A stretch of DNA of 47,481 nt from an uncultured Gaiellales bacterium. Its GTDB lineage: Bacteria > Actinomycetota > Thermoleophilia > Gaiellales > JALYLC01. The position numbers were made by a program, and so were the translations under genes. Where the stretch lies: the NCBI GenBank assembly GCA_964651695.1, contig CAZYYP010000002.1:14575-62055 (forward strand). Reading direction: 5' to 3'. Each line of letters opens with the position of its first letter. Position 1 is the first letter of the stretch. The notes below the pieces were generated by a model, which was given only the letters and a program-made list of their open reading frames with translations, was not told where the DNA came from and made no database searches. Below, one piece after another: positions 1,092 through 41,158 of this stretch.

Positions 1092-2882
1092 CTAGCTCGC
1101 GAGCAGCGCCGCGGGCAGGCTCTGGTCGCCCGCCAGCGCACCGGCGAAGGGATCGCCGAGCTTCTCCATCCGCCGCAGCGCGGCGCGCATCGTGGGCCGC
1201 GCGCGGGCGAAGGCCCCCGACTCGACCTCGTCCCAGGTGAGTGGCATCGAGACCGGCGCGCCCGGGCGCGGTCGCACGCAGTAGGCGACCGACATCGTGC
1301 GCCCGTAGCCCACCTGATGGGAGTCGATCAGCACACCGTGGCGGCGGCTCTTGTTCCACTCGGTCGTGACGAGGTCGGGGTGCGCGCGCTCGAGCGCCTG
1401 CGCCACGAGTTGCACGAGGGAGCGCGCCTGCGCATAGGTGTGGCCGGGGCGGAGCGGCACCGCGAGATGCATCCCCTCGGCACTCGAGGTCTTGACGACC
1501 GCGCGCAGCTCGAGCACCGCCAGGGCGTCGCGCACGAGCAGGGCCACGCGCCCGGTCTGGGCGAGCGTCACGCCCGGGGACGGGTCGAGGTCGAAGAGCA
1601 CGAAGTCGGGCGAGGTGAAGCTCTGCGCCCGCGCATAGGGCGCGTGGACGTCGATGCAGCCGGCGTTGATCGTCCAGAGGAGCCCGTCCTCGTCGTCGAT
1701 CACGAGGTACTCGATCGCCGTTCCGCTGCCGTCGGAGCTGCTCGGGAGCGTCGCGCTCTCCATCCAGGCGGGCGCGTGCGGGGGCCGCTGTTTCTGGAAG
1801 AAGTGCTTGCCTGCAATGCCGTCGGGGTACCGCACGAGCGTGATCGGCCGGTCACGGAGATACGGCACGATCAGCCCTGCCGCCTGCCGGTAGTAGGCCA
1901 GCAGATCGCCCTTGGTGATCTGCTCCTCGGGGAAGAAGATCTTGTCCTGGTTCGTGAGCTTGAGCTCGCGATCCGGCCTGTCCGTCACGGGTTGCTCCTT
2001 CGCGAGTCGCTTGAACACGGGCGCGCGCAGGCGGTGGTCGCGGGTCCATTCGGCGAACTCGACCTCGCACCGGAGCGATGGCTCGAGCCACGTGACGCCC
2101 AGGCGCGTGGCACCCGCGGGCCCGGCGCCGCGCAGCGGAGAGGTCTCGCGCTGCAGGGGAGCGAAGCGCTCGAGCAGCTCGCGCATGTCCGCGTCCGAGA
2201 GTCCGCTGCCGCAGTTGCCGGCGTACTCCAGGTCGTCGGTGGCGAGCACCAGGGCACCCAGCCTGGCGCGTGACCCCTGCCCGCTCGTGTACCCGGCGAT
2301 ACGCAGGACGGCCGACTGGCGCAGCTTGATCTTGCGCCAGTCGTCGCTGCGGCGCCCGGGCTTGTAGATCGCCGTGACGCGCTTGGCCATGATGCCCTCG
2401 AGGCCGCGCGCACGCGCCGCCGCGAGCAGGGCCTCGCCGTCGTCGTAGACCTGGGAGAGCACGATCGCCGTGGCGCCTGGGCGGATCAGCCCGGCGAGGA
2501 GCTCGCGCCGCCGGCTCCACGGCTCGTGCGTGACGGCCTGGCCGCCGATCTCGAGCACGTCGAAGACCACGTAGGCGACAGCGCCCTCCCCGCGCTGGAA
2601 GAGCGTGAAGCTCGGCACGCCGCTCTCATCGAACGCGCAGAGCTCGCCGTCGAGCACGCAATCGGTGTTCGTGAGCGCACGCGGCAGCGCGTCGGCGACG
2701 GCGGCCTGACCGCCCTCGAGCCGTTTGCCGTTGCGCGAGAGCAGTTGCACGTCGTTCCCGGCCACGCGCGCAATGGCCCGGAACCCGTCCCACTTGATCT
2801 CGAAGCGCCATGCGTCGCCGGGCGGGACGGCCTCCGCCGTCGCGGCGAGCATGGGTGCGTAGGTGGGCGGGTCGCTCGGCAT
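1092..2882 (-). CDS. ligD: ATP-dependent DNA ligase LigD, ligase + primase-polymerase domains (NHEJ)
   Basis: Internal ATG at 2880-2882 of ORF 1092..3143. N-terminal half carries the ligase adenylation motif EIKWDGFRA. C-terminal half carries LigD polymerase-domain motifs (FFQKQ, VLFDLDP, VKTSSAEGMHLAVP, LIDSHQ). No phosphoesterase domain is recognisable. Confidence 0.9.
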   Translation of the reverse strand: MPSDPPTYAPMLAATAEAVPPGDAWRFEIKWDGFRAIARVAGNDVQLLSRNGKRLEGGQAAVADALPRALTNTDCVLDGELCAFDESGVPSFTLFQRGEGAVAYVVFDVLEIGGQAVTHEPWSRRRELLAGLIRPGATAIVLSQVYDDGEALLAAARARGLEGIMAKRVTAIYKPGRRSDDWRKIKLRQSAVLRIAGYTSGQGSRARLGALVLATDDLEYAGNCGSGLSDADMRELLERFAPLQRETSPLRGAGPAGATRLGVTWLEPSLRCEVEFAEWTRDHRLRAPVFKRLAKEQPVTDRPDRELKLTNQDKIFFPEEQITKGDLLAYYRQAAGLIVPYLRDRPITLVRYPDGIAGKHFFQKQRPPHAPAWMESATLPSSSDGSGTAIEYLVIDDEDGLLWTINAGCIDVHAPYARAQSFTSPDFVLFDLDPSPGVTLAQTGRVALLVRDALAVLELRAVVKTSSAEGMHLAVPLRPGHTYAQARSLVQLVAQALERAHPDLVTTEWNKSRRHGVLIDSHQVGYGRTMSVAYCVRPRPGAPVSMPLTWDEVESGAFARARPTMRAALRRMEKLGDPFAGALAGDQSLPAALLAS

Positions 2883-2934
2883 GGCAGGTCGGCGTCGCTG
2901 CGAAGGCTCGACGGGCAGATGGTAGGCTCGCCGC

Positions 2935-3339
2935 GTGCCCGAGCCCCCGTTGCCTCCCCGGCTCGACGCGTTCCTAACCCGGCCGAACGCCGCCGTCATC
3001 GCGACGGTGCGAGCCGACGGGTCCCCCGTGACGGTGGCGACCTGGTACGACTGGGAGGATGGCCGCCTGCTCGTCAACATGGACGAGAGCCGGAAGCGCC
3101 TCGCGCATCTGCGCGCCGACCCGCGGGTCTCCCTGACGGTCATGGATCTCTCCGACTGGAGCGTTCACGTCAGCCTGCAGGGTCGCGTCGTCTCGCTCGA
3201 GGATGATCCGGATCTCGCCGGCATCGACCGCCTGTCGGTGCGCTACACCGGTCAGCCCTATGCGGTGCGCGACCGGCGACGCGTGAGCGCGTGGATCGAG
3301 ATCGAGCGCTGGCACGCCTGGCGCCCCGAGCGGATCTGA
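2935..3339 (+). CDS. Pyridoxamine 5'-phosphate oxidase-family (PPOX class, probably F420-dependent) protein
   Basis: 134-aa ORF, GTG start. Sequence LTRPNAAVIATVRADGSPVTVATWYDWEDGRLLVNMDESRKRLAHLRADPRVSLTV is typical of the PPOX/FMN-binding split-barrel family. Confidence 0.8.
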   Translation: MPEPPLPPRLDAFLTRPNAAVIATVRADGSPVTVATWYDWEDGRLLVNMDESRKRLAHLRADPRVSLTVMDLSDWSVHVSLQGRVVSLEDDPDLAGIDRLSVRYTGQPYAVRDRRRVSAWIEIERWHAWRPERI

Positions 3340-8277: not shown

Positions 8278-8383
8278 ACGTGATCAACCTACGGGTCGGC
8301 GGCGGCGGGCACAACGGTCGCAGGGCCGATCTTTGCGGTGCCTTGATGTACGCCGGAGGTCTCACGGGTCTAGCGTGAGGCGC

Positions 8384-9856
8384 ATGGGCTTGGCAGAAGA
8401 GCTCGACCGCGCAGCGGTCGTCGATGCCGACGGCGTCCTCGATGGCGCTGCCCTGCGCCGTGCGGCGCGTGCGTTCGCGACCGCGCTGACGGCGGCAGGG
8501 GTGGGCGATGGCGGCGTCGTCGGCCTCGCGCTCGGGTCCGCGCGCGCGCTCGTTCCCGCGCTCGCTGCGGCCTGGGAGATCGGTGCGACGGTCGTCCTCG
8601 TGCCGCCGGGACTCGGCGGCGCCGAGCTCGCGGCAGTCGCGCACGGACTGGCGCCGCGCCTGATCGTGGCGGAGGCGGCGCATGCGGCGCGCATCGCGGG
8701 TGCGACGGGCGGCACGCCGGCTGCGCTTCAGATCGACGGCGAGCCGTCGCTCGCGCTCGTCGCGCGCGACGGCGAGGAGCGGTCGGCGGCGCTCGCGGGG
8801 GCGGCGCTCGTGAAGCTCTCGTCCGGGTCGACCGGAGCGCCCAAGGCGGTCGTCCTGACGCACGCCAACGTGGCTGCGGAGTCGGCCGGCATCGTCGCCG
8901 CGCTCGGACTCCGGCCCGGCGATCGCGTGACCTCCCCGGTGCCCCTGACGCACTCCTACGGCTTCGACCTGGGCGTCCTCGCGGTGCTTGCGAGCGGCGC
9001 CGTCCTCGAGCAGCGGCCGGCCCTGTCGCCGCGGCGGGCGCTCGCCGACATGGCCGCCGCAACGGTCTACCTGGGCGTCCCGGCGATCTACCGCGTCGCG
9101 GCCGATGCGCCCGTCTCGGCGCCGCCGGAGCTGAGCGGCGCCCGCTACCTGCTGTCGTGCACGGCGCCGCTCCCGGCCGACCTGATCCGTCGCTTCGCAG
9201 CGCGCTTCGGCGCTCCGATCTGCCAGCACTACGGCTCGTCCGAGACCGGGGCGGTCGCGAATCACTCGCCCGAGCGGGTGCTCGAACACCCCGATTCGGT
9301 CGGCCGGGCGATCGCAGGCGTGGCGGTGCACGTCGACGAGTCCACCGGAGAGCTCGTCGTCCGGGGCCCGGCCGTCGCCGCCGGGTATGCCCTCGGCGCC
9401 CCTGCCGGGCCCTCGCCACTCAGCGGCGGGATGTTCCGCACGGGCGACCTGGCCGAGATCGACGGGGAGGGATTCGTTCGCATCCGCGGGCGCCGCGACT
9501 CCGTCATCAACGTCGGCGGGCTCAAGGTGTCGCCGCAGGAGGTCGCCGAAGCGCTCGAGCGTCACCCGGCGGTGCGGGAGGCCGCCGTCATCGGGCTGCC
9601 CGACGGCCGCGGCGACGACATCGTGGCCGCAGCGGTCGTGCTGGAGCGCCGCGTCGCCAATGCCGACCTGATCGCGCACTGCGGCGGCGAGCTCGCCGAG
9701 TACAAGGTGCCGCGCCGGATCGTCGTCCTGGACGAGCTGCCTGTCGGCCCGACCGGCAAGGTCAGGCTTTCGGCCGAAGACCTGCGCGAAGTCGTCCCGC
9801 GATCCGAGAATCCTGGAAGGGGCATTCGCCACCACCGCCGGGACAGACGGGCCTAA
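8384..9856 (+). CDS. ANL-superfamily adenylating enzyme (AMP-dependent synthetase/ligase)
   Basis: ATG at 8384 within ORF 8027..9856. Core motifs SSGSTGAPK, HYGSSETG, FRTGDLAE, RRDSVINVGGLKVSPQEVE and VGPTGKV are present. Confidence 0.85.
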   Translation: MGLAEELDRAAVVDADGVLDGAALRRAARAFATALTAAGVGDGGVVGLALGSARALVPALAAAWEIGATVVLVPPGLGGAELAAVAHGLAPRLIVAEAAHAARIAGATGGTPAALQIDGEPSLALVARDGEERSAALAGAALVKLSSGSTGAPKAVVLTHANVAAESAGIVAALGLRPGDRVTSPVPLTHSYGFDLGVLAVLASGAVLEQRPALSPRRALADMAAATVYLGVPAIYRVAADAPVSAPPELSGARYLLSCTAPLPADLIRRFAARFGAPICQHYGSSETGAVANHSPERVLEHPDSVGRAIAGVAVHVDESTGELVVRGPAVAAGYALGAPAGPSPLSGGMFRTGDLAEIDGEGFVRIRGRRDSVINVGGLKVSPQEVAEALERHPAVREAAVIGLPDGRGDDIVAAAVVLERRVANADLIAHCGGELAEYKVPRRIVVLDELPVGPTGKVRLSAEDLREVVPRSENPGRGIRHHRRDRRA

Positions 9857-9865
9857 GGTTGGGGA

Positions 9866-10876
9866 ATGGCCGCTCGTTCTCAGTGGCGCTCGGACCCGGA
9901 TGACGCATTGCTCGACGAGGTGGCGCTGATCGTGCGGCAGGCCACGGGTATCGGAAGCGCGCGCGTGCTACCGATCGACGACCCGCTGGGCACGCTCGGA
10001 CTCGACTCCCTGTCGCTCGTCAACGCCGTCGCCGCCGTGGAGGGCGCCTTCGCGCGCGAGCTCCCCGACGAGCTGTGGGAGGATCGCCGCGGCATCTCGA
10101 TCGCGAGCCTCGCGGCGGCCGTGGCCCGGAGCGGGGCGGAGCCGCCGGTCGCCCGGCCGGTCGCGCCCGTCGCCGCGCCCGAGCCCGCGGGTGTCGAGCA
10201 GCCCGGCGTGTCCCGCTTCGAGCGGCTCTTCCATCGGCTCGAGCAGCGCGGCGTGGCCGGCCGGACCGCCGCCCACGCCCTGCATGGGGCGGCCATCGGC
10301 GCGCACTGGACGCACTCGCAGTCGCGCTGCCTCGTCCTCGAACGCGACCTGACCGGCGAGCTGCCGGCGTTCTCCCTGCCCGACGGCGTGACGGTCGCGC
10401 CCTACGACGGCGCCTCGGACGCGCCCCTCGCGGGCATCTGGACCGCGACCCAGGCGCACCGCAGGCGGGCGCACCTGCGGCGCCGCATGCAGAGCGGCAT
10501 CCTCTGTCTCGCCGCCTGGGAGGGCGGGCGCATCGTCGCGTTCGACCTGATCGGGCCGACGGGCGCCGAGGACGTCGCCACGCGGCCCGGAACGTGCTTC
10601 GGCCTCGACCTCTACGAGCGGCGCTCCTCGCGCGGTCGTGGCATCGGCCTCGGCCTGCTCGCCGCATCGCTGCAGTACGCGCGCGACCTCGGCTTCTCGC
10701 GCCAGGCCACGATCGTCCTCGAGCGCAACCGGCCGATGATCGCCGCGGCCACGCAGATGCTCGGCTTCAGCGTCGCCGGTCACGCCGAGCGCACCGCGCG
10801 CCTCGGCCGCGTCACGTGGACGTGGCGCCTGCACGGGTCGACCTGCAGCGGCCCGAAGCTCTTCATCCAGAAATAA
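9866..10876 (+). CDS. Carrier-protein (phosphopantetheine-attachment) domain fused to a GNAT acyltransferase domain
   Basis: AAGGTTGGGGA lies upstream of the ATG. The N-terminal ~90 aa carry LGTLGLDSLSLVNAV (Ser48 codon at 10007-10009). A Pro/Ala linker follows. The C-terminal domain has the GNAT motif A, RGRGIGLGLL. Confidence 0.75.
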   Translation: MAARSQWRSDPDDALLDEVALIVRQATGIGSARVLPIDDPLGTLGLDSLSLVNAVAAVEGAFARELPDELWEDRRGISIASLAAAVARSGAEPPVARPVAPVAAPEPAGVEQPGVSRFERLFHRLEQRGVAGRTAAHALHGAAIGAHWTHSQSRCLVLERDLTGELPAFSLPDGVTVAPYDGASDAPLAGIWTATQAHRRRAHLRRRMQSGILCLAAWEGGRIVAFDLIGPTGAEDVATRPGTCFGLDLYERRSSRGRGIGLGLLAASLQYARDLGFSRQATIVLERNRPMIAAATQMLGFSVAGHAERTARLGRVTWTWRLHGSTCSGPKLFIQK

Positions 10877-10915
10877 TCGCTGCAGGTCCGGGACGGCGGT
10901 AAGGTGCCGATTGGC

Positions 10916-11566
10916 ATGCGCAGGCCCTCTCCCGCCATCGTCGTCGCCACCCTTGCGCTGGTGCTCGCGGCCGTGCCCGTCGGCTCGGCGGCGGATGGGT
11001 GGGTCAAGCAGGCCCTGTACGCGCGCAACGCCGGTTCCGTCGACGGCTTCAGCGCGACGAAGTCGCCGCACAAGGGGCACCTGGTCGTCCTTCCGGCCTC
11101 CGGCAAGCTCCCGGCCTCGATCCTGCCGGCCGCGAGCGCCGGCTCGTCCTCCGGTGGAGGAGCCGCCGGCGCGGCCGTGTCCTCGAGTTCCTCCTCCGAC
11201 GGCTCGGGCGGATCGGCCTCCGAGGCCTCGGCCCCCGCTGCCGTCACCCTCACGAGTGCCCAGACCAGCGTGGTCACGCTCTCGCTCAAGGCGGGCTCGT
11301 ACGCGATCGTGGCCAAGGCCAGCCTGCACGCCACGCTCGACACCAGCTCGCCGGGTGTCACCTGTCTGCTCAAGGCGGGCAGCGACGGCGATCAGGTCGA
11401 CAGCGACCTCTCGGCGAGCTCGGACGATCCGGTCGCGCTCGTCACGACGCACACGTTCGGCGCCGCCGGCAACGTCACGCTCACCTGCGCGGCCGATGAC
11501 ACCGGCGTGGTCGTGAGCGATGCGCACATCATCGCGCTGAAGGTCGCTTCGATCAGCTCGAGCTGA
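10916..11566 (+). CDS. Secreted protein with a Ser/Gly/Ala-rich linker
   Basis: Signal peptide MRRPSPAIVVATLALVLAAVPVGSAADG, using ATG 10916 (GTG 10904 is the alternative). A low-complexity SSGGGAAGAAVSSSSSSDGSGGSASEAS segment is followed by a beta-rich C-terminal domain. Confidence 0.6.
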   Translation: MRRPSPAIVVATLALVLAAVPVGSAADGWVKQALYARNAGSVDGFSATKSPHKGHLVVLPASGKLPASILPAASAGSSSGGGAAGAAVSSSSSSDGSGGSASEASAPAAVTLTSAQTSVVTLSLKAGSYAIVAKASLHATLDTSSPGVTCLLKAGSDGDQVDSDLSASSDDPVALVTTHTFGAAGNVTLTCAADDTGVVVSDAHIIALKVASISSS

Positions 11567-17668: not shown

Positions 17669-19930
17669 GTGGATGCCGGCCAGGTGGTCGCGCTGCACCC
17701 GGCTGCCGAGGACGCCGACCCATCGCCGATCGGCCCCGGCATGCCGCGCGCGCAGAACCACGAGGGCCGCATCCTGCGCCCCGCCGTGCGCCGGGGCTGG
17801 CTCGAGGGTGCGGGCGGCGCGGCACGCGGTCAGGACGCATTCGTCGAGGTCGGATGGGACGAGGCGCTCGATCTCGCCGCGCGCGAGCTCGCGCGCGTCA
17901 AGGCCGAGCACGGCAACGCGAGCATCTACGGCGGCTCCTACGGCTGGGGGAGCGCGGGCCGCTTCCACCACCCGCAGGGGTTGCTGCACCGCTTTCTCAA
18001 CCTCCACGGCGGCTACACCGCGTCGGTCAACAGCTACAGCTGCGCGGCGATGGAGGTCATCCTCCCGCACGTCATCGGCGGGCCGTCCGATGCCATCTAC
18101 TCGTCGGCTCCGCACTGGGACGAGATCGCCGCGCACACCGAGCTGATCGTGGCGTTCGGGGGCCTGGCGCTCAAGAACACCCAGATCAACTCCGGCGGAC
18201 TGGCGCGGCACGTCGCGCGCGGCGCGCAGGTGGCGGCGCGCGAGGCCGGCGTCGACTTCGTCAACCTCAGCCCGGTGCGCGGCGACATCGACGACCACCA
18301 GGGCGCGCGCTGGATCGCGCCGCGGCCCAACACCGACGTCGCGCTGATGATGGGGCTCGCGCACACGATGATCGCGTCCGGGACGCACGACGTGCGCTTC
18401 CTGCGCGAGTGCTGCACGGGCTGGGACGAGCTCGAGGCCTACCTCGTCGGTGCACTCGACGGCGTGCGGCGGGACGCGGCCTGGGCCGCCGGGATCTGCG
18501 ATGTCGAGCAGGCGGCGATCGAGTCTCTCGCTGCCGAGATGACGGCACGGCGCACGCTGGTCACCGTCAGCTGGTCGCTGCAGCGGGCCGATCACGGAGA
18601 GCAGCCGTTCTGGATGGGCGTCGCCCTGGCCGCCATGACCGGTTCGATGGGGCTGCCGGGCGGCGGCTTCGGGAGCGGCTATGGCGCGATCCACTCGGTC
18701 GGGGTGCAACCCGACCGCCATCGCGTCAAGGCCCTCCCGCAGGGTCAGAACCGCGTCACCGTGCGCACGCCCGTCGCGCGGATCGCCGACATGCTGCTCG
18801 CGCCGGGGACGGTCATCGACTACGACGGTCAGCGCATCACGCTTCCCGACATCCGCCTCGTCTACTGGTGTGGCGGCAATCCGTTCCACCACCACCAGGA
18901 TCTGAATCGGCTGGCCCGGGCGTGGCAGCAGCCCGAGACGGTGATCGTGCACGAGTCGAGGTGGAATCCGATCGCGCGCTTCGCCGACATCGTGTTTCCC
19001 GCCGCCACCGCACTCGAGCGCAACGACGTGGCGGCCGGCTGGGCCGATTCGTGGATCTCGGCGATGCACCAGGCGGTCGCGCCGCCGCCGGAGGTGCGCA
19101 CCGACTACGAGACGCTCTGCGCACTCGCCGCGCGGCTCGGCTTCCTGGACGGGTTCTCCGAGGGACGGAGCGGTGACGAGTGGGTGCGGTACTTCTACGC
19201 ATCGACCCGCGACGACCTCGGGCGTCTGGGCGTCGAGCTGCCGGAGTACGAGGAGTTCTGGGCCGCGGGGCGGATCGAGATGCCGACGCCGCCGCGGCGC
19301 CGGACGCTCGATTTCGCCGCCCTGCGCGCCGACCCCGTCGCCGCACCGCTGCCCACGCCCTCGGGCCGGATCGAGCTCGCCTCGCAGACGATCGCCGGGT
19401 TCGGGTACGACGACTGCCCGGGCCACCCGGCCTGGATGGAGCCTGCGGAGTGGCTCGGGTCGGATCTCGCACGCCGCTTCCCGCTCCATCTGATCTCGAA
19501 CCAGCCGTCCACGCGGCTCCACTCGCAGTACGACAACGGTGGCTTCAGCCAGGACTCCAAGGTCGACGGCCGCGAGCCCATGCGGTTGCATCCCGACGAC
19601 GCGCGCGCCCGCGGCATCGGCGACGGCGACGTCGTGCGGGTCTTCAACGATCGCGGCACCTGCCTCGCGGGTGCGGTGCTCGACCCGAACCTGCGCCGCT
19701 CGGTCGTCCAGCTCTCGACCGGCGCCTGGTGGGATCCCGTGGCTCCCGGCGACCCGGCGGCGCTCGACCGGCACGGCAACCCGAACGTGCTCACGCTCGA
19801 CAAGGGCACCTCGCGGCTCGCCCAGGGCCCGAGTGCGCAGACCGCGCTCGTCCAGGTCGAGCGCTTCGACGGCCCCGTGCCCGCGGTGCAGGCCTACGCG
19901 CCGCCCGAGCTGATCGCGCCCGCGCCGTGA
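17669..19930 (+). CDS. Molybdopterin oxidoreductase, BisC/TorZ-like (biotin sulfoxide / S- or N-oxide reductase type, cytoplasmic)
   Basis: 753-aa ORF resembling E. coli BisC from its N-terminus (FVEVGWDEALDL...ASIYGGSYGW...LHGGYT). Similarity continues upstream of the GTG (TSTHWGNYDVEV matches BisC AAHWGPMLVE). The true start is therefore upstream and is not reachable in frame (see findings). No Tat signal and no N-terminal Fe-S Cys motif. Confidence 0.9.
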   Translation: MDAGQVVALHPAAEDADPSPIGPGMPRAQNHEGRILRPAVRRGWLEGAGGAARGQDAFVEVGWDEALDLAARELARVKAEHGNASIYGGSYGWGSAGRFHHPQGLLHRFLNLHGGYTASVNSYSCAAMEVILPHVIGGPSDAIYSSAPHWDEIAAHTELIVAFGGLALKNTQINSGGLARHVARGAQVAAREAGVDFVNLSPVRGDIDDHQGARWIAPRPNTDVALMMGLAHTMIASGTHDVRFLRECCTGWDELEAYLVGALDGVRRDAAWAAGICDVEQAAIESLAAEMTARRTLVTVSWSLQRADHGEQPFWMGVALAAMTGSMGLPGGGFGSGYGAIHSVGVQPDRHRVKALPQGQNRVTVRTPVARIADMLLAPGTVIDYDGQRITLPDIRLVYWCGGNPFHHHQDLNRLARAWQQPETVIVHESRWNPIARFADIVFPAATALERNDVAAGWADSWISAMHQAVAPPPEVRTDYETLCALAARLGFLDGFSEGRSGDEWVRYFYASTRDDLGRLGVELPEYEEFWAAGRIEMPTPPRRRTLDFAALRADPVAAPLPTPSGRIELASQTIAGFGYDDCPGHPAWMEPAEWLGSDLARRFPLHLISNQPSTRLHSQYDNGGFSQDSKVDGREPMRLHPDDARARGIGDGDVVRVFNDRGTCLAGAVLDPNLRRSVVQLSTGAWWDPVAPGDPAALDRHGNPNVLTLDKGTSRLAQGPSAQTALVQVERFDGPVPAVQAYAPPELIAPAP

Positions 19931-21198
19931 GGATCGATCTTGCGTACGGGAGTGACGGCCTCACGGTCGAGTTGCCGGACGACCGCACGACCGTGGTCGA
20001 GCCGCTCCACCCGCCGGCGGCGCCCGACGGGCGCGCGGCGGTGCTCGACGCCCTCCGCCACCCGATCGCCGGACCGCCCCTGCGCGAGGTCGTGCGCGGC
20101 CGGCGCACGGTGGCGATCAGCATCTGCGACGGCACGCGGCCGCAGCCTCGTCACATCGTGGTGCCCGCGATCATCGACGAGCTCGCTGGGCTCGTGCGCC
20201 TCGAGGACATCGTCGTGCTCGTCGCCACCGGAACGCATCGCGGCAACACCGAGGCGGAGCTGCGCGCGATGCTCGGCGACGAGGTGCTCGCGGCCGTGCG
20301 CGTCGTCAACCACGACGCCCGCGACGAGTCGTCGCTGACCTGGATGGGGCGCTTCGGGGCCGATGTCCCCGTGTGGCTGAACAGCGAGTGGGCACGCGCC
20401 GACGTGCGCATCACGACGGGCTTCGTCGAGCCGCACTTCTTCGCGGGCTTCTCCGGCGGGCCGAAGCTGGTCGCGCCCGGTCTGGCGGGCCTCGAGACGA
20501 CGCTCACGTTGCACGATGCCGCGCGCATCGGCCATCCGGACGCGCGCTGGGGCATCACGCAGGGCAACCCCGTGCACGACGACGTCCGGGCGATCGCGGC
20601 CGCAACCGGCACGCACTTCTCCCTCGACGTCGTGCTCGACGGCGACCAGCGCATCGCGCGGGCCTTCGGCGGCGAGCTGTTCGCGATGCACGACGCGGCC
20701 TGCTCGCTCGTGCGGCAGACGGCGATGCGCGCCGTGCCGGGTGCCTTCGACGTCGTGCTGACGACGAACTCCGGCTTCCCGCTCGACCAGAACCTCTACC
20801 AGGCGGTCAAGGGGATGTCGGCGGCGGCACAGGTCGTGCGCCCGGGCGGGACGATCGTCTGTGCCGCGGAGTGCCGCGACGGCTTTCCCGCCCACGGCCC
20901 GTATCGCGCGGAGCTGACCGCCGCCGCGTCACCGGCGGCCTTGCTCGAGGCCATCGCCGCACGGACGCAGACGGTGGCCGACCAGTGGCAGATCCAGATC
21001 CAGGCGGGCATCCAGTCGCGCTCGCGCGTGATCGTCCACACCTCGTACCTGTCCGACGCCGAGCTCGCCGAGGCGCACCTCGAGCAGACGCCCGACGTCG
21101 AGGCCACCGTGCGGCATCTGCTCGAGGACGCGGGGCCCGATGCCCGCGTGTGCGTGTTGCCGTACGGGCCGCTGACGGTGCCGTACCTGGCCGGCTGA
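19927..21198 (+). CDS. larA: LarA-family nickel-pincer-cofactor-dependent 2-hydroxyacid racemase/epimerase homologue
   Basis: The GTG at 19927 overlaps the upstream stop (GTGA). 423 aa with motifs ATGTHRGNT and VEPHFFAGFSGGPK. The spacing His-66-His-10-Lys-16-His equals that of L. plantarum LarA His108/His174/Lys184/His200. Confidence 0.85.
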   Translation: MRIDLAYGSDGLTVELPDDRTTVVEPLHPPAAPDGRAAVLDALRHPIAGPPLREVVRGRRTVAISICDGTRPQPRHIVVPAIIDELAGLVRLEDIVVLVATGTHRGNTEAELRAMLGDEVLAAVRVVNHDARDESSLTWMGRFGADVPVWLNSEWARADVRITTGFVEPHFFAGFSGGPKLVAPGLAGLETTLTLHDAARIGHPDARWGITQGNPVHDDVRAIAAATGTHFSLDVVLDGDQRIARAFGGELFAMHDAACSLVRQTAMRAVPGAFDVVLTTNSGFPLDQNLYQAVKGMSAAAQVVRPGGTIVCAAECRDGFPAHGPYRAELTAAASPAALLEAIAARTQTVADQWQIQIQAGIQSRSRVIVHTSYLSDAELAEAHLEQTPDVEATVRHLLEDAGPDARVCVLPYGPLTVPYLAG

Positions 21199-21347: not shown

Positions 21348-22403
21348 TCAGGCGGCGCGGATGTGAGGTCGCGGCGGGCGTGCGACGACGGTGCAGTTCT
21401 TGCCGGCCCGCTTGGCGGCGAGCAGGGATGCGTCGGCGGCGGCGATGAGCGGCTCGGCTGTCTGGGCGAGCCCACGGCTCGAGACCGCGCCGACGGATGC
21501 CGTGACGGCGATGTCGCCGGCCGCCGTCGCGAATGCGCGGCGGCCGACGCTCGCGCGGACGCGCTCGGCGATCGCGCGCATGCTCTCGTGCTTCCCCGCG
21601 CGGCAGAGGAGCAGGAACTCCTCGCCTCCCCAGCGTGCGACGACGTCGTCCGGTCGCACCGCCCGGTTCAGGCGCGCGACGGTGGCGATCAGCACCTCGT
21701 CGCCGACCAGGTGCCCATGGCGGTCGTTGATGTCCTTGAAGTCGTCGAGGTCGAGCAGCAGCACGCCGATCGAGTGCCCGCCGGTCGCGAGCAGCTCGTT
21801 GAGAACGCGATCGACGTGGCGCCGGTTGGCGGCGCCGGTGAGCGGATCGGTCATCGCGAGCTCGACCGCCAGGCTGTGCGCGGCGTCGAGCTTGGCGTTC
21901 GCCTCGGCCAGATCGGCGAGCGCGAAGCGCAGGTCGTCTTCGGCCGCGCGCTGCTTGGTGATGTCCGAGAGGATCCCCGCGAACCGCACGCTGCCGTCGC
22001 CGAGTTGCTCCGGCTTCACGCGCGCGCGGATCCACCGGATCCGGCCGTCGATCCCGTGCACGCGGTAGTCGACCTGCGCCGGGCGCCCGGCGAGCAACTC
22101 GCCCTCGCACGCCCGATACGCCGCCAGGTCGGCGGGATCGATCCGGTTCTGCCAGGCGTCGCTCACATCCTCCTGCAGGGCGGGCAGCTCCCCTCCGATC
22201 ATGCGCTCGAGATTCGGCCCGGAGAAGAGCGTGTCGAAGTGCCCGTCCGGCTGCAGCAACCCGAAGTAGAGGTGGTCGTCGAGCGCATCGACCGTCGCGG
22301 TCAGCCACCAGTGCCCGGCGTCCAGATCCGCGCGAGCCGCGTCCGCCCGGGAGACCGAGCCGGTCGTTCGAGCGCGCGCCGTGCGGGCCATCTCGGATTC
22401 CAT
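21348..22403 (-). CDS. PAS-domain diguanylate cyclase (GGDEF)
   Basis: ATG at 22401-22403 in ORF 21348..22508. PAS segment (YRVHGIDGRIRWI) followed by GGDEF (DPLTGAANRR, RWGGEEFLLL). Confidence 0.85.
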   Translation of the reverse strand: MESEMARTARARTTGSVSRADAARADLDAGHWWLTATVDALDDHLYFGLLQPDGHFDTLFSGPNLERMIGGELPALQEDVSDAWQNRIDPADLAAYRACEGELLAGRPAQVDYRVHGIDGRIRWIRARVKPEQLGDGSVRFAGILSDITKQRAAEDDLRFALADLAEANAKLDAAHSLAVELAMTDPLTGAANRRHVDRVLNELLATGGHSIGVLLLDLDDFKDINDRHGHLVGDEVLIATVARLNRAVRPDDVVARWGGEEFLLLCRAGKHESMRAIAERVRASVGRRAFATAAGDIAVTASVGAVSSRGLAQTAEPLIAAADASLLAAKRAGKNCTVVARPPRPHIRAA

Positions 22404-22449
22404 CGGCAGAACCCCGTGGGCCCGCGAGGGTGATCTCCACACCCCATCG

Positions 22450-23818: not shown

Positions 23819-24790
23819 ATGAATTCGCGTTCTCGGCCCCGTCCAAGCACCATGGCGTCGATGACGGAGGCAATCCGCCACGAAGGCGGCCTCGTCGCAG
23901 CCGCCTGCGCCGGGGACGAGCGGGCGTTCGGCGAACTGGTCGAGCCGTATCGCCGCGCGCTCGAAGTGCACTGCTACCGGATGCTCGGCTCGCTCCACGA
24001 CGCCGAAGACGCGGTGCAGGAGACGAGCCTGAAGGCCTGGCGCTCCCTCGACCGCTTCGAGAGCCGCGCCTCCGTGCAGACCTGGCTCTACCGGATCGCG
24101 ACGAACACGTGCCTCGACGAGCTCGAGCGGCGGCAGCGGCGCGCCGAGCCGGTGATCGATCCCTACCCCGACGCCCGCCTTCAGGAGTCCGGCTCCGCGG
24201 TCGTCGACCCGGCTGCGCGCTACGCGCAGCGCGAGGGCATCGAGCTGGCATTCCTGACCTCCATCCAGCGGCTTCCGGGCCGCCAGCGCGTCGTCCTCAT
24301 CCTCCGGGACGTCCTCGGCTGGAGTGCGGCCGAGACGGCCGAGTTGCTTGGTTCGAGCGCTTCGGCGGTGCACAGCGCGTTGCAGCGGGCGCGCGCCACG
24401 GTCGACCGGCAGCTCCCGGCGCGCTCTGAGTTCCCCCGCCGGGCGAGCGAGAGGGATCTGCTGCGGCGCTACGTCGATGCATGGGAGCGCAGCGACATCG
24501 ACGGCCTCGTCGCCCTCATGCGTGAAGACGCGGCGCTCCTGATGCCCCCGCAGCCCTCGGTGGAGGGCGCCGGCGCGGTTGCCGCGTTCTTCGCTCACGC
24601 ACGCAGCGCCTGGCGACTGACGGCCCGTCCGGCGTGGGCCAACGGCCAACCGGCGATCGCGCTCGCCGAGCGCACGTGCGACGGCGAGCTGCGTCCGCAT
24701 CGCCTGCTCCTGCTCGAGATCGAGGGCGACTCGGTGATCCGTCTTCACGCCTACGGCGGCGCACATGTCCTCGCGGCCTTCGGGCTCTAG
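23819..24790 (+). CDS. ECF-type sigma-70 factor with a C-terminal SnoaL/NTF2-like extension (ECF41/SigJ-like)
   Basis: Region 2 (YRMLGSLHDAEDAVQETSLKAWRSL, WLYRIATNTCLD) and region 4 (LPGRQRVVLILRDVLGWSAAETAELLGSSASAVHSALQRAR), followed by a ~120-aa extension. The start could be 23819, 23852 or 23861. Confidence 0.85.
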   Translation: MNSRSRPRPSTMASMTEAIRHEGGLVAAACAGDERAFGELVEPYRRALEVHCYRMLGSLHDAEDAVQETSLKAWRSLDRFESRASVQTWLYRIATNTCLDELERRQRRAEPVIDPYPDARLQESGSAVVDPAARYAQREGIELAFLTSIQRLPGRQRVVLILRDVLGWSAAETAELLGSSASAVHSALQRARATVDRQLPARSEFPRRASERDLLRRYVDAWERSDIDGLVALMREDAALLMPPQPSVEGAGAVAAFFAHARSAWRLTARPAWANGQPAIALAERTCDGELRPHRLLLLEIEGDSVIRLHAYGGAHVLAAFGL

Positions 24791-25717: not shown

Positions 25718-26067
25718 GGTGTGCTCCTCTCGTGGATCGCCAGAGTACGGACGTGCCGAAAGCGGCGCAATCCCGCGTGCCGGCCGAGTCCGGATGCGTT
25801 CTGCCCTCGGGTACCATGTCGCGACTGTCCGCGAGGGTGAAGGGGAGTCGCATGTCGGCTGCGCGCGCACGCTTGTCGGGGCCGCTGTCGTCGTGCCGGC
25901 GATCGACCGACCAGCCCGCTTGGCGCGTGGTTCCAGGGTTCGTTCCTCGACTCCCCGCCGGCGGCGGCGATCCTGCGCGACGATCCGGCTGACAGCCTTT
26001 GGGCGTAGACCACCAGCGGCCGATCCACACCGAGCACCGTCAACTCGAAGCGACCAAAGGAGAGCAC

Positions 26068-27071
<1,004 letters not shown>

Positions 27072-27075
<4 letters not shown>

Positions 27076-28013
27076 TCGAGGGGCTCCTCCGCCGGGGAGC
27101 GAGCCCTGCCCGACCCGGGCCTGGCCCGATGCCGGAGCCGCTGCTGCGCGCGCTCGACCTCTCGATCGCGCGCCGGGTCGAGGGCTTACTGCCCGGGGAT
27201 CACCGCTCGAACCTGCTCGGGCGCGGCAGCGAGCTGGCGCAGATCAGGCCCTACGAGCCGGTCGAGGACGACGTGCGCCAGATCGACTGGAACGTGACGG
27301 CCCGCACGGGCACGCCGCACGTGCGCATCCACCTCGCCGAGCGCGCGCTCGTCACCTGGCTCGTGCTCGACACGTCGCCCTCGATGACGTTCGGCACGGC
27401 CGAGCGCCGGAAGGCCGACGTCGCAGAGGGCGCGGCGCTCGCGATCGGCTACGCGGCGACGCGGCGCGGCAACCGCCTCGGCCTCGTCACGTTCGGCGAC
27501 GAGCAGCCGCGCATGCTGCCTGCGCGGCAGGGCCGCGCCGGCCTGCTCGGTCTGCTGCTCGCGCTGCGCAAGGAGGAGGCCGCGCGGGATCGGCGGGCCG
27601 AGCGCGGAGCGACTTCGATCGGCGAGGCGCTGCAGCGCGTCGGCAACCTCGCCCGGCAGCGCTCGTATGTCGTCGTGGTGTCCGACTTCCGCGGGCCGCG
27701 CGACTGGCGCAGGCCGTTGCTCATGCTCGGGGGACGGCACGATGTCGTGGCGATCGAGATCCGCGATCCGCGCGAGCAGGAGCTGCCGCGCTTCGGGCAA
27801 CTGCGGCTCGTCGACCCCGAGACCGGTCGCCAGCTCAAGGTCGACACCTCGAGCGAGCGGTTGCGGGCGCAGTTCGCCGCAGCGGCCGCCGGCGAGCGAC
27901 GCGAGGTGGCGGCCGAGATCGCCTCGGCGGGTGCGCGGCACGTCGTGCTCGGGACCGAGGGCGATTGGCTGCGCGAGCTGACGGGCTTCCTCCGCCACGC
28001 GGGAGCGCAGTGA
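27072..28013 (+). CDS. DUF58-domain protein (MoxR-associated, VWA-like)
   Basis: The GTG overlaps the moxR stop (GTGA). Signature [27 protein letters not shown] and VLDTSPSM. Confidence 0.85.
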
Positions 28014-28987
28014 GCTTCGCCTCCCCTGTCGCGCTCTGGGCGCTGGTGCTGCTGCCGCTCGCAGCCGCCGGCTACGTCCTGCTCGAACGCAGGCGGATCC
28101 GCGAGGCCTCGCGGTTCGTCGCTCCCGGGCTGCTCCCGAACGTCGTCGACCACGTTCCGGGCTGGCGCAGGCACCTGCCCGCGGCGATCCTGCTGCTCGC
28201 CGTCGCGACGTTCCTGCTCGGCTTCGCGCGCCCGCACGCGACCATCTCGGAGCGCTCCGAACAGGCGACGGTCGTGCTGGCAATCGACACGTCGCACTCG
28301 ATGGCCGCGACCGACGTGCCGCCGACGCGATTGGCAGCCGCCCAGGCGTCGGCCCGGCGCTTCCTCACCGGCCTGCCGAAGTCCTATCGCGTCGCCGTGG
28401 TCGACTTCAGCAGCCTGGCGCAGCTTGCGTCCGCACCGACGACCGATCGCGCCTTCGTGGACGAGGCGCTCGGCGGCCTGCGCATCGGCCAGGGCACGGC
28501 ACTCGGCGACGGCCTCGCGACGGCGGTCGCGGTCGCCCGCGGGACGCCGCAGGGCGTGCAGCCGCCGGCCGGCGAGAAGCCGCCGCCGAGCGCGATCCTG
28601 ATCCTCTCGGACGGCGCCCAGGACGGCGGGCACGTCAAGCTCGCCGACGCCATCAAGCAGGCGCGTCAGGCCAGGATCCCGGTCTTCACGGCGCTGATCG
28701 GAACCCAGGCCGGCGTCGTGCAGGTGCCGCACGTCGGCGGCTACGTCGAGCGCATTCAGGTGCCGCCCGATCCGGCCGCCCTCCGCCAGGTCGCGACACA
28801 GACGAACGGCAGGTACTTCGCCGCGCCCACGGCCGCCGATCTCGCCGCCGTCTACAAGGATCTGAAATCCCGGCTCGGCACGACCCGCAAGGACGAGGAG
28901 ATCACCGTCGCCTTCGCCGGGGCGGGTGCGCTCCTGCTGCTCGCGAGCGGCGTGCTCTCCGTGCTCTGGTTCCGGAGGGTGCCGTGA
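28010..28987 (+). CDS. VWA-domain membrane protein (BatA-like)
   Basis: GTGA overlap with the upstream gene. N-terminal TM helices, MIDAS motif LAIDTSHSM, GTALGDGL, and a C-terminal TM helix. Confidence 0.85.
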   Translation: MSFASPVALWALVLLPLAAAGYVLLERRRIREASRFVAPGLLPNVVDHVPGWRRHLPAAILLLAVATFLLGFARPHATISERSEQATVVLAIDTSHSMAATDVPPTRLAAAQASARRFLTGLPKSYRVAVVDFSSLAQLASAPTTDRAFVDEALGGLRIGQGTALGDGLATAVAVARGTPQGVQPPAGEKPPPSAILILSDGAQDGGHVKLADAIKQARQARIPVFTALIGTQAGVVQVPHVGGYVERIQVPPDPAALRQVATQTNGRYFAAPTAADLAAVYKDLKSRLGTTRKDEEITVAFAGAGALLLLASGVLSVLWFRRVP

Positions 28988-29685
28988 TGCGGGCGGTCGC
29001 AGCGGCGCTCGTGGCCGCCGTCGCGCTCGGGGCCGGCGTCGCGTCCTCGAGTGCCGCGGACGAGTGCCGGGGCCTTCGGGTCTGCATTCCCGTGGCGGGT
29101 CCGTGGGTCGTGATCCCGGCTCCGGCCGATCGTTCCGCGACTGCGCGCTGGCGGCTCGTGTGCCCGCAGGGCGTGGTCGGGGGCGTCGATGCCTTCGCGA
29201 GCGAGACCGCCGTCGCAGTCGAGTTTCCGGGGCGCATCGGGAGCCCCGTCAACCCCGGCATCACGACGACCGGCACGCTCGTGTTCACGGGCACCTACGC
29301 GGGGCACGTCCGCAGGCGCACGAGCTACGAGCCGTTCATCGGCTGCATCCCCGGAGCCGGCGGCGGTCCGCGCACGCCCATGGCTCTCGCGCGCTCGGGC
29401 GCGGTCAAGCCCGGCGATCCCATCACGACGCGCGTGGCGACGCTGCCGGTGGCGCCCGGGCGGCTGGCGCGCGCGACGCTGCGCTGCAAGCGCGGGGAGC
29501 GCCTGCTGCGCAGCACCCACAGCGTGGGCCTCTATACGCTGGGCGCTCCGACGAAGGCGCAGCTCGCGTCCGTGCGCGTCGTCGCCGTGCGGCGCGGCGG
29601 CGCGGTTCTCGTCAGCGCGACGCGGCGCGGACTCGCGCCCGGCGTGTGGGCCGAGGTGCAAGTGCTCGCGGAGTGCGCGCGGTGA
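28984..29685 (+). CDS. Secreted Cys-containing protein of unknown function
   Basis: GTGATG junction with the upstream VWA gene. Signal peptide MMRAVAAALVAAVALGAGVASSSAADE. The mature part has six Cys and looks beta-rich. I recognise no family motif. Confidence 0.6.
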   Translation: MMRAVAAALVAAVALGAGVASSSAADECRGLRVCIPVAGPWVVIPAPADRSATARWRLVCPQGVVGGVDAFASETAVAVEFPGRIGSPVNPGITTTGTLVFTGTYAGHVRRRTSYEPFIGCIPGAGGGPRTPMALARSGAVKPGDPITTRVATLPVAPGRLARATLRCKRGERLLRSTHSVGLYTLGAPTKAQLASVRVVAVRRGGAVLVSATRRGLAPGVWAEVQVLAECAR

Positions 29686-30683
29686 GGCTCGCCTGGCCGC
29701 CGGCGCTGCTCGCGCTCCTGATCGTGCCGCTCGCGGTGGTCGGCTACATCGTGCTCGAACGGCGGCGTGCGCGCTATGCCATCCACTACACGAACATCGA
29801 GGTGCTGGCCGGCGTCGTCACGGCCTCGGCGGTGCGGCGCTGGCGCGCGCTCGTCCCGCCCGTGCTGATCCTGCTCGCCCTCACCTGCGCCGCCGCGGCG
29901 CTCGCGCGCCCCGAGCTGCAGATTTCGGTCGCCAGCGAGCAGGCCTCGATCGCCCTCGTCGTGGACATGTCGGGGTCGATGTCGGCGGAGGACGTGAAGC
30001 CGACGCGTCTCGCAGCCGCCCAGGAGGCCGTGCGGCGCTTTCTCGCCAAGGTGCCGGAAAAGTACCGCGTCGGACTCGTGACCTTCGCCTCGGAGCCGTA
30101 TGTCGCGGCGCCGCTGACCCACGATCGCAACCTCGTGCTGCAGGGTCTCGTGTACGGCTCGACGTTCGGCCGCGGCACGGCGATCGGCGACGCGCTCGCC
30201 CGCTCGGTCGAGCTCCTCGAGCCGCAGGCGAACGGGGAGGCGGGCACGGGAGGCGCTGTGGCACCTCCACCGCTGCCCCGGACGCCGGACGCGCCGCTAG
30301 CGGCGATCCTCCTGCTCTCCGACGGCGCCCAGACCCGCGGCACCCTCGCCCCGCTCGCCGGCGCGCGGCGCGCGAAGTCCTACGGCATCCCGGTCTACAC
30401 GGTCGCGCTCGGCACCCCGAACGGCGTTCTCAGCATCGGGGGCTTCGAGCGTCCCGTCCCGCCCGATCCAACGACCCTGCGCCAGATCGCCCGGACGACG
30501 GGAGGCGAGTTCTTCGCGACGCAGAGCGAGGCGCGGCTCAACGCCGTCTACGAGGATCTCGCCTCGCGGCTCGGGAACAAGCAGGAGTGGCGCGAGCTGA
30601 GCTTCGCCCTCGTCGGCGCGGCGGCGCTGCTCGCACTCGCCGCAACCGGGCTCTCGCTGCTCTGGGTGCAGCGCCTGCCGTGA
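29682..30683 (+). CDS. VWA-domain membrane protein (BatB-like)
   Basis: GTGA overlap. N-terminal TM helices, MIDAS motif VVDMSGSMS, GTAIGDAL, and a C-terminal TM helix. Confidence 0.85.
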   Translation: MRLAWPPALLALLIVPLAVVGYIVLERRRARYAIHYTNIEVLAGVVTASAVRRWRALVPPVLILLALTCAAAALARPELQISVASEQASIALVVDMSGSMSAEDVKPTRLAAAQEAVRRFLAKVPEKYRVGLVTFASEPYVAAPLTHDRNLVLQGLVYGSTFGRGTAIGDALARSVELLEPQANGEAGTGGAVAPPPLPRTPDAPLAAILLLSDGAQTRGTLAPLAGARRAKSYGIPVYTVALGTPNGVLSIGGFERPVPPDPTTLRQIARTTGGEFFATQSEARLNAVYEDLASRLGNKQEWRELSFALVGAAALLALAATGLSLLWVQRLP

Positions 30684-38142: not shown

Positions 38143-38799
38143 TCAGGCGCGGACGACGAGGCGGTTCTCGACGTCGCGCACGCCCGGCGCACCCCAAGCG
38201 GCGCGCTCCGCCGCCCACCGCTCCTGGGCCGAGTGCACGGTCCCGCGCAGCGTGATCGTGCCATTGCTGGTCTCGACCTCGATGCGGCGCGCATCGAGCA
38301 CGGCATTGCGCTGGAACGCATTGAGAATGCCCTGCTTCACGAGCTTCCTCGACGGCCGCGGCTTCACGCCGATCAGGTTGACGACGTCGACGACGCCCGC
38401 GAGGTCGTGCACGGCGTTCTCGGCCGCCTGACGCTGGTAGCGCCACTCGACGCCGCCCCGGAGCGTGATGACTCCGTGACTCACCGTCACGTCGATGCCG
38501 GCCTTGGGCACCGACACGGAGCGGCGCAGTCCGTCGAGCACCGCGGTCGCGATCTCCGTGTCGGTGAGCTTGTGCGCGCCGGGGAAGACGACCTCGATGT
38601 CGTTGGCGAGCGCCTGCACCCCGAAGACGCGCTCCGCCGCGCGCTCGGCCGCGATCTTCTCGTAGTAGCTCGGGACGCTTCCGGTCAGTGTCACCACGTG
38701 ATCGTCAGCGGCGACGCCGAGGTGAGCCGCGTCGACCGAGGGCTCCCAGCGGAGCTCCTCGAGAACCCGCTCCTGGAGATTTGCATCGGCGACGGACAT
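38143..38799 (-). CDS. BON-domain (OsmY-like) protein, three BON repeats
   Basis: ATG at 38797-38799 after GAAAGGA. Three repeated BON units: VVTLTGSVPSYYEKIAAERAA, VITLRGGVEWRYQRQAAENA and TITLRGTVHSAQERWAAERAA. Confidence 0.85.
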   Translation of the reverse strand: MSVADANLQERVLEELRWEPSVDAAHLGVAADDHVVTLTGSVPSYYEKIAAERAAERVFGVQALANDIEVVFPGAHKLTDTEIATAVLDGLRRSVSVPKAGIDVTVSHGVITLRGGVEWRYQRQAAENAVHDLAGVVDVVNLIGVKPRPSRKLVKQGILNAFQRNAVLDARRIEVETSNGTITLRGTVHSAQERWAAERAAWGAPGVRDVENRLVVRA

Positions 38800-38965
38800 G
38801 ACGGTCCTTTCCGCTGGATTCTTCCGGTCCGGACACCGTATGCAGGAGGCTCTGCGCATTCATCCGCGGACGCGCGCACGTCGGATACGGCAAATCCGCA
38901 GGCCTGAGCGCCGGTTTCAGGCGCCGGGCGTCTCGCACTCCGAACGCGACGTCTGAAACGAGTCC

Positions 38966-40230: not shown

Positions 40231-40275
40231 GTGCCCTTCTGCCTCCTCACCAGGCTAGAGCGACCGAGCAGCCCC

Positions 40276-41049: not shown

Positions 41050-41158
41050 GAGGTCCTTTCGCTGAGGTTGTGGGGGCGGTGTCGGCTGCGGTCAGCGGAA
41101 CTGCGCCGGAGCGGGGAGGCGGGCGGGATCCTGCCGGACGCTGTGAGCGCGGTGCCCC

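Follow-up and report, generated by a model that had tools for sequence, protein, structure and literature searches.

A stretch of 47,481 nucleotides (nt) from an uncultured Gaiellales bacterium (GenBank contig CAZYYP010000002.1, positions 14,575 to 62,055; hereafter the window, G+C content ~72%) carries at positions 8384-10876 a two-gene cassette composed of an adenylating enzyme and a carrier domain fused to a GNAT acyltransferase. Open reading frame (ORF) A (8384-9856, + strand) encodes a stand-alone ANL adenylating enzyme of 490 amino acids (aa), and ORF B (9866-10876, + strand) encodes a 336-aa protein made up of a carrier domain, a linker and a GNAT domain. The TAA stop codon of ORF A and the ATG of ORF B are separated by a 9-nt, Shine-Dalgarno-like spacer (GGTTGGGGA, 9857..9865, + strand). 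This architecture had been proposed, at these coordinates, in an initial annotation made from the letters of the window; the domains pass their Pfam gathering thresholds, the carrier domain narrowly, and an AlphaFold2 (AF2) model agrees with it.

The two proteins of the cassette

The carrier domain of ORF B comprises residues 11-88 (9896..10129, + strand), as placed by Pfam, a profile of the ORF B family and AF2. Its Pfam PP-binding score (22.8 bits, cut-off 20.8) is marginal taken alone; the assignment is solid because the family profile matches solved acyl carrier proteins (ACPs) with E=3e-7, the AF2 model contains a helical carrier domain, and Ser48 is invariant. This residue, the predicted phosphopantetheine site in the motif GLDSL (codon 10007-10009, + strand), was located in the alignment of fused members and is present in all intact fused members aligned, down to 27-28% identity and across phyla. 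A Pro/Ala-rich flexible linker follows (residues 89-116, 10130..10213, + strand), marked by variable alignment columns and by low values of the predicted local distance difference test (pLDDT), which are below 50 for residues 94-115; both its length and its sequence vary across the family.

The GNAT domain (residues 117-336 plus the stop codon, 10214..10876, + strand) is supported by Pfam, AF2 and Foldseek. It matches Acetyltransf_1 with 34.1 bits (cut-off 20.7) and Acetyltransf_7 below threshold, and no GNAT family beyond these two. In the AF2 model of ORF B (pLDDT 81.4) the helical carrier domain (11-88) is succeeded by a disordered linker and a GNAT fold (117-334), the latter built of two N-terminal helices and a canonical GNAT core; pLDDT of the AF2 models, including that of the GNAT domain, is 81-88. 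RGRGIGLGLL (256-265) forms the GNAT motif-A loop, of which R256-G-R-G-I-G261 is conserved in the family, and conserved E251 lies at the end of beta-4, the usual position of the general base. Q280, N288 and W320 are likewise conserved family-wide. Cys244 was considered as a catalytic nucleophile and rejected, as it is replaced in distant members. Foldseek matches the ORF B models to GNATs at E~1e-8, and the best folds for the GNAT domain on its own are generic (TM about 0.5), namely tandem-GNAT catalytic domains (MAB_4324), MshD, a Clostridium glucosamine N-acetyltransferase and VipF. The closest folds include amino-sugar and thiol-sugar N-acyltransferases (the Clostridium enzyme and MshD).

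ORF A matches Pfam AMP-binding (177.4 bits) and AMP-binding_C (57.9 bits), both above gathering thresholds, and contains all the ANL core motifs (SSGSTGAPK, YGSSETG, TGD, GRRDSVINVGGLKVSPQEV, and the A10 motif PTGK with its Lys). Segments HSYGFDLGVL (A4), ICQHYGSSETGA (A5) and INVGG.KVSP.EV (A8) are invariant in its family, and a cross-phylum alignment of 10 sequences revealed the further invariant, family-specific motifs LSCTAPL and VPRR...GK in the adenylases that partner the fusion. Judged by these motifs, the partner adenylases are one orthologous family across phyla, and such conservation therefore implies that a single substrate would be common to them.

The closest PDB matches of ORF A are MatB, oxalyl-CoA ligase and FadD13. 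All of its NCBIfam matches fall under their curated cut-offs (the malonyl-CoA synthase model, for example, scores 189 bits with a cut-off of 558), and by this comparison ORF A is not similar to fatty acyl-AMP ligases. In HMMER alignments, PLTHSYGFD of ORF A falls on the His-type A4 motif of MatB (PIYHTHGL) and oxalyl-CoA ligase (PLFHVHGL) and does not align with the FDxS motif of amino-acid adenylases, the Asp of which binds the alpha-amino group. The A4 motif is on this alignment acyl-CoA-synthetase-like, not of the amino-acid type, and the aminoacyl (DltA/FemX-like) route suggested in the initial annotation is not favoured. Hand alignment to the PheA numbering places invariant Tyr, Asp and His at the inferred pocket positions; because of these residues dicarboxylates (malonate among them) and simple fatty acids appear disfavoured as the substrate, and a polar, hydroxy- or non-alpha-amino acid remains a candidate. 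The pocket, which had been suggested as a predictor of the substrate, yields in this form a rough code and no confident call.

Pfam scans of the ~40 called ORFs of the window (short uncalled gaps lay outside the scan) found no condensation, ketosynthase (KS), thioesterase, reductase or phosphopantetheinyl transferase (PPTase) domain, as the initial annotation had stated, and no MBOAT.

Conservation of the gene pair and carrier-less alleles

A word-indexed search returned ~70 clusters (90% identity) related to ORF B, most of them full-length with both domains, and a full hidden Markov model scan of 1.8 billion representatives returned 94 clusters (50% identity) at E<=1e-30, most of which are 300-350 aa long and cover the whole profile. 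Genome matches belong to Gaiellales/Gaiellaceae and to metagenome-assembled genomes of unclassified Actinomycetes, and the labels on more distant fused members, which are not actinobacterial in composition, are Zixibacteria and Bacteroidota. An assembly or frameshift artefact was rejected because the fusion recurs in many independent assemblies. Frameshifts in copies of these two genes visibly account for the matches of odd length (P0062-P0065, P0069-P0071, P0162, P0163), and weak genome matches in Steroidobacteraceae, Myxococcales and Gammaproteobacteria (L018-L025) were set aside as ordinary ~150-aa GNATs that align in the motif-A region only, with no carrier or ANL gene nearby. Stand-alone carriers of ~90-110 aa (P0197, P0199) and GNAT-only relatives of ~200-250 aa exist; in the search for split versions, P0160, a stand-alone GNAT relative, retrieved no match but itself, on a 1.5-kb contig the flanks of which are uninformative.

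Loci were compared by tblastn and gene-context look-ups, and an adenylase adjoins the fusion in every full-length locus with enough flank. The ANL gene lies immediately upstream in L001, L002, L004, L005, L008-L013, L015-L017, L027-L029, L031 and L032, and immediately downstream in L014. In nine loci other than the window the two genes share 4 nt (GTGA/ATGA) where the ANL gene stops and the fusion gene starts, a recognised sign of translational coupling. One locus, L030, has a non-orthologous adenylase of the CapK_C/PaaK type in the adenylase position, and what is conserved is therefore the logic of adenylase plus carrier-GNAT fusion itself. The conserved unit is the gene pair, across several phyla. 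The conservation of the serine, the reality of the fusion and the conservation of the pair, all of which the initial annotation had left to be checked, hold up in these comparisons.

ORF A ends in a basic C-terminal tail of ~20 aa (residues ~471-490, 9794-9856, …PRSENPGRGIRHHRRDRRA), and its orthologues are without this tail and end in '…EDLxx'. The tail coincides with the 9-nt spacer that stands in the window in place of the usual 4-nt overlap.

A short subgroup of the family (P0044-P0058, ~236-245 aa) has no carrier domain. Its members retain the N-terminal ~16 residues of the fused form, joined directly to the GNAT region, which amounts to a clean in-frame deletion of the carrier. Such relatives of ORF B are found at L003 (8001-8714), L006 (~250-921) and L026 (1996-2733), and they nest inside the fused clade (e.g. 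pN 0.08-0.11 to L004/L005). The adenylase is also gone in L003/L007 and in L026, and L026 has lost the neighbouring kinase/regulator pair as well and has kept uppP and the downstream genes. The GNAT part of the carrier-less alleles retains all the family invariants, with dN/dS of 0.17-0.47, a range also seen when fused genes are compared with each other, and by this measure purifying selection on it continues. With the adenylase and the carrier gone and the GNAT intact, the two were therefore lost as a unit and the GNAT survived. This co-loss is consistent with donor delivery by the carrier, since the pantetheine arm is the same in acyl-CoA, and it argues against models in which the substrate of the GNAT is tethered to the carrier.

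Genomic setting and proposed reaction

The 106-bp intergenic region between the sensor kinase gene (- strand) and the adenylase gene (+ strand) is the presumed divergent promoter (8278..8383), an arrangement common only to the window, L004 and L005. Neighbours of the cassette in the window include BacA/UppP, the HisKA_3 kinase with a LuxR-type regulator, a 220-aa protein that has a Ser-rich region and starts with a signal-peptide-like segment (10904..11566, + strand, 27 nt 3' of ORF B), and a stand-alone, MprF-like LPG_synthase_TM gene ~3 kb downstream, which is parted from the cassette by an opposite-strand gene. These genes are present as initially annotated (Pfam, ORF map), and had been taken as a hint of an envelope function. 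They are common only to relatives of at least 63% identity (L001, L003-L007, L026) and absent from all the more distant loci compared, and are therefore synteny, not conserved functional partners. The 220-aa protein has no Pfam or NCBIfam family, is found only in the clade-A loci (L001, L003-L007, L026), and also adjoins carrier-less GNAT alleles. Its candidacy as the acceptor in an HlyC/HlyA-style acylation was rejected as a conserved mechanism, given the lack of a family match and its restriction to one clade, and may hold in that clade at most.

An envelope role is plausible from distant relatives embedded in exopolysaccharide (EPS) loci, not from the window neighbours, and the envelope hint survives in this altered form. 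An EPS locus surrounds the cassette in a Gaiellaceae clade (L009-L013, L016; ~40% identity), with genes for a priming polyprenyl glycosylphosphotransferase (Bac_transf), GT4 glycosyltransferases, a PF01522 polysaccharide deacetylase, Wzy_C and a P-loop protein, and one or two Acetyltransf_6 (FemAB/CelD-like) proteins are encoded beside the cassette. L012 scores 336 bits for TIGR03025 (cut-off 296) and also has GT4, Wzy_C and Polysacc_deac_1. In L028/L031, from a lineage unrelated to Gaiellaceae, the cassette is accompanied by three Acetyltransf_6/FemAB genes, a Polysacc_synt flippase, GT4 and Leu_Phe_trans. EPS priming, glycosyltransferase and polymerase functions thus occur together at L012, and a flippase and a glycosyltransferase at L028, both of them distant cassette loci.

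Also in the Gaiellaceae loci, the genes for the EPS priming transferase and the adenylase enclose a conserved ORF of 80-92 aa with the motif 'YFDAEGNRTEDPAQAVRGE' (L012 6248-6514; L016 6242-6481; L009 10119-10397, - strand; L013 12346-12600, - strand), which matches no Pfam or NCBIfam family. In L030 (2597-12726) a Dlt-like set of ANL, 82-aa ORF, MBOAT and 297-aa ORF flanks the carrier-GNAT fusion, and an ornithine/diaminopimelate (Orn/DAP)-type pyridoxal phosphate (PLP) decarboxylase is also encoded beside the cassette; two carrier-based modification systems there lie side by side.

From these observations we infer a reaction in which ORF A would adenylate one specific carboxylic acid, probably a small polar one rather than malonate or a simple fatty acid, and would thioesterify it onto the Ser48 phosphopantetheine arm of the ORF B carrier domain. 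The flexible linker would then swing the loaded carrier into the phosphopantetheine/CoA groove of its own C-terminal GNAT domain, which would pass the acyl group to an amine of the acceptor. The likeliest acceptor class would be a cell-envelope glycan intermediate, e.g. an amino sugar of a polyprenyl-linked EPS repeat unit, and in the lineage of the window the cassette would have been displaced from the glycan locus. The flow from activation through thioester loading to in-cis GNAT transfer had been suggested from the window and is the most economical reading, strengthened by the co-loss of adenylase and carrier, with loading, in-cis transfer, substrate class and acceptor all standing as predicted steps. 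For the whole, a self-contained, carrier-protein-dependent acyl transfer with an envelope-glycan intermediate as the likeliest acceptor class, we see an even chance of being right; that an envelope-glycan amine is the ancestral or most frequent acceptor is proposed with modest confidence.

The chemistry itself belongs to a known class. In the altemicidin pathway of Streptomyces, SbzL (adenylase), SbzG (carrier) and SbzI (carrier-dependent GNAT) have been characterised biochemically and structurally, and an engineered SbzG-GGGGS-SbzI fusion had ~3 times the activity of the unfused pair (PMC11685415). Other carrier-dependent GNATs named are GdvG/AprG, FeeM (of the FeeM/FeeL N-acyl amino acid synthase) and the CurA/GphF GNATs; all characterised carrier-dependent GNAT transferases have small-molecule or peptide substrates, and the choice of carrier over CoA is, by the account of that study, still largely unclear (PMC11685415). 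The SbzI-SbzG complex was published in late 2024. The cassette resembles SbzL/G/I in that the same three functions, a dedicated adenylase, a carrier with a conserved Ser and a GNAT fold with motif A, are found in the same order of action. The engineered fusion has the domain order of ORF B, with the carrier N-terminal and the GNAT C-terminal, and the SbzGI crystal structure 8zt4 is matched by the full-length ORF B model (E=8e-6). Unlike SbzL/G/I, the ORF B fusion is natural, with a long Pro/Ala linker, and its setting is not a natural-product cluster. For sequence homology to SbzI/SbzG, 8zt4 was not among the best 60 matches at E<=1, and the resemblance is architectural, probably convergent, not orthologous.

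Carrier-dependent acylation is also known from mycobactin, in which MbtK acts with MbtL and FadD33 and a dedicated adenylating enzyme loads the carrier. FeeM/FeeL, GdvG/AprG and MbtK are alike in that the acyl donor of a GNAT fold is supplied on a phosphopantetheinyl carrier, not on CoA, as is proposed for ORF B, but they are separate proteins, and the acyl groups they transfer in the biosynthesis of lipopeptides, siderophores or signals are long fatty chains. ORF B has no match to Acetyltransf_8, which we take to be the Pfam family of MbtK. The CurA/GphF loading modules of polyketide synthases (PKSs) have, as ORF B does, a GNAT-like and a carrier domain on one polypeptide, in the opposite order, GNAT then ACP. 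Their chemistry is of the decarboxylase/S-transfer kind, and in the megasynthases to which they belong a KS follows, whereas ORF B has no KS in the window. Membership in nonribosomal peptide synthetases or PKSs finds no support, as no condensation, ketosynthase or thioesterase domain occurs in the window or related loci and the order is carrier then GNAT.

Among envelope-modifying systems, the Dlt pathway of teichoic acid D-alanylation (DltA/DltC/DltB/DltD) likewise has a stand-alone adenylase that loads a small carrier, but transfer is by an MBOAT (DltB), not a GNAT; the window has no MBOAT, and ORF A is without the A4 Asp of the amino-acid type. By Pfam, ORF B has no MprF synthase or FemAB domain that would place it with MprF or FemX, and the nearby MprF-like gene is LPG_synthase_TM only. 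PEP-CTERM/exosortase-A EPS loci contain a TIGR03098 acyl-CoA ligase, an ACP, FemAB-like proteins, a polysaccharide deacetylase and a PLP decarboxylase. The Gaiellaceae, L028 and L030 loci resemble them in ANL, carrier, FemAB-like Acetyltransf_6, deacetylase, Bac_transf, GT4 and PLP decarboxylase genes. In PEP-CTERM/exosortase-A loci the carrier is a separate protein, and to our knowledge no carrier-GNAT fusion has been described from them. TIGR03098 scores 151.8 bits for ORF A and 146.9 for the L012 ANL protein (cut-off 592), TIGR03013 (287, cut-off 393) and TIGR03088 (203, cut-off 409) are also below cut-off, and no exosortase was seen, which places the loci outside that group.

A search of a literature collection found no description of a natural carrier-GNAT fusion with a dedicated adenylase, nor of an association with EPS. 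The initial annotation had regarded the whole system as undescribed; its logic is already characterised in SbzL/SbzG/SbzI (PMC11685415), and only the natural fusion and the non-natural-product (cell-envelope) setting appear to be new.

Several observations weigh against a carrier-delivered acyl transfer to an envelope glycan. Models of the GNAT domain alone have none of SbzI, FeeM or CurA in the top 50 fold matches, and without its carrier the domain has no specific likeness to known carrier-dependent GNATs. The persisting carrier-less alleles show that some genomes can do without the carrier route, no nearby PPTase gene was found among the scanned window ORFs, and the pocket mapping behind the substrate class is a hand alignment. 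No glycan-assembly genes of a polyprenyl-phosphate-primed EPS system adjoin the cassette in the window, and other contexts are also not glycan loci, including L027 (phosphatidylserine (PS) decarboxylase, HAD), L029/L032 (PAS-GerE regulator, secreted proteases) and L015; because of these contexts the acceptor may differ between lineages.

The same contexts bear on the alternative that the mechanism is as proposed and the product is a small, diffusible N-acyl amine (of the amino acid, polyamine or ethanolamine type), which would make the pair a minimal natural-product cassette like SbzL/G/I or FeeM/FeeL. The lack of glycan genes in the window, L015, L027, L029 and L032 would be expected of such a cassette, amine-generating decarboxylases lie beside it in L030 (Orn/DAP) and L027 (PS), and the characterised carrier-dependent GNAT transferases all act on small molecules or peptides (PMC11685415). 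Embedding in EPS loci in two unrelated lineages speaks against it, as does the fact that no tailoring, export or resistance genes of natural-product type travel with the pair, and the small product is considered unlikely. Somewhat less probable is a carrier that holds the acceptor, with ORF A loading an amino acid onto the Ser48 phosphopantetheine, the GNAT domain N-acylating it from acetyl- or acyl-CoA, and another enzyme (e.g. a FemAB-like Acetyltransf_6) transferring the unit. The canonical motif-A loop could bind CoA, Acetyltransf_6/FemAB-like genes recur beside the cassette in L009-L013, L016, L028 and L031, and the invariant Asp in the A4 region of the adenylase could contact an amine. 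That A4 region has no Asp at the alpha-amino-binding position of amino-acid adenylases, however, many cassette loci have no Acetyltransf_6 gene, and adenylase-free, carrier-less GNATs under purifying selection are hard to explain if the substrate sat on the carrier.

Two further explanations are regarded as highly improbable. MatB malonyl-CoA synthetases are the top PDB matches of ORF A (E~1e-45) and ACP-associated GNAT-like decarboxylases exist (PMC11685415), which would suit a CurA/GphF-like priming reaction in which ORF A loads malonate and the GNAT-like domain decarboxylates malonyl-S-carrier to an acetyl-S-carrier starter. The identity to MatB is only at the generic ANL level, with the malonyl-CoA synthase model far below its cut-off, and an invariant Asp at the hand-mapped pocket position would disfavour a dicarboxylate. 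Neither CurA nor GphF is in the top 50 fold matches, no KS or other PKS or fatty acid synthase partner occurs in the window or related loci, and the domain order is the reverse of that in GNAT-ACP loading modules such as CurA. The ORF B GNAT could also be a Pat-like regulator that acetylates the A10 lysine of the neighbouring adenylase, with the carrier as a docking element. Acetylation of ANL A10 lysines by GNATs is widespread in Actinobacteria, and ORF A has the A10 Lys, but this role leaves unexplained both the conserved phosphopantetheinylation serine and the retention of the GNAT after adenylase loss, and Pfam and NCBIfam show no similarity to the Pat/AcuA families.

Carrier-delivered transfer to a glycan amine can be extended, tentatively and with a greater chance of being wrong than right, to a portable decoration cassette, independent of tRNA and of nonribosomal peptide synthetases. 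This would place a specific non-acetyl acyl group (possibly amino- or hydroxy-acyl) on EPS amino sugars after their de-N-acetylation by the co-located deacetylase, and the FemAB-like Acetyltransf_6 proteins might share the carrier-tethered donor. The NodB/NodA/NodF logic is a parallel for acylation of an amino sugar generated by a deacetylase.

Implications and other genes of the window

Carrier-protein-dependent GNATs are few and have been understood structurally only recently. The family described here offers a natural covalent carrier-GNAT fusion in about 94 clusters (50% identity) from several phyla, together with a co-evolving dedicated adenylase, and its natural carrier-less derivatives are a ready-made comparative system for the selection of carrier versus CoA as donor. 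If the acceptor is an EPS amino sugar, the cassette would represent an unrecognised route of glycan decoration in other phyla as well as in the Gaiellales, which are abundant, uncultured Actinomycetota of soils. Should the product prove to be a small N-acyl amine, the pair would be a biosynthetic cassette of very small size. For enzymatic N-acylation, the two genes could moreover be put to use as a compact tool.

Directly downstream of the cassette lies a gene for a PAS-GGDEF-HD-GYP (HD_5) cyclic di-GMP protein (11586-~13700, - strand), which is kept in close relatives; a second cyclic di-GMP signalling protein (PAS-GGDEF) is encoded at 21348-22442 (- strand). Upstream, 1092-3143 (- strand) encodes a LigD-type non-homologous end joining enzyme (ATP-dependent ligase and Prim-Pol) in synteny with L001 and L003. 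A molybdopterin oxidoreductase gene is followed, with a 4-nt overlap, by that of a LarA-like lactate racemase family protein (17669-21198, + strand), and at 23819-24790 (+ strand) a SnoaL_2 domain is fused C-terminally to an extracytoplasmic function-type sigma factor (Sigma70_r2/r4). An operon of MoxR (AAA_3), DUF58, VWA and VWA genes precedes a trypsin/PDZ (HtrA-like) protease gene (25999-31756), and in L015 a MoxR-like gene starts ~2.4 kb downstream of the cassette. The right part of the window contains a GDE_N_bis glycogen-debranching-like enzyme (35899-37992) and a stress-type cluster (38143-41665, - strand) that encodes a 3xBON-domain protein, a GT4 glycosyltransferase and two universal stress proteins.

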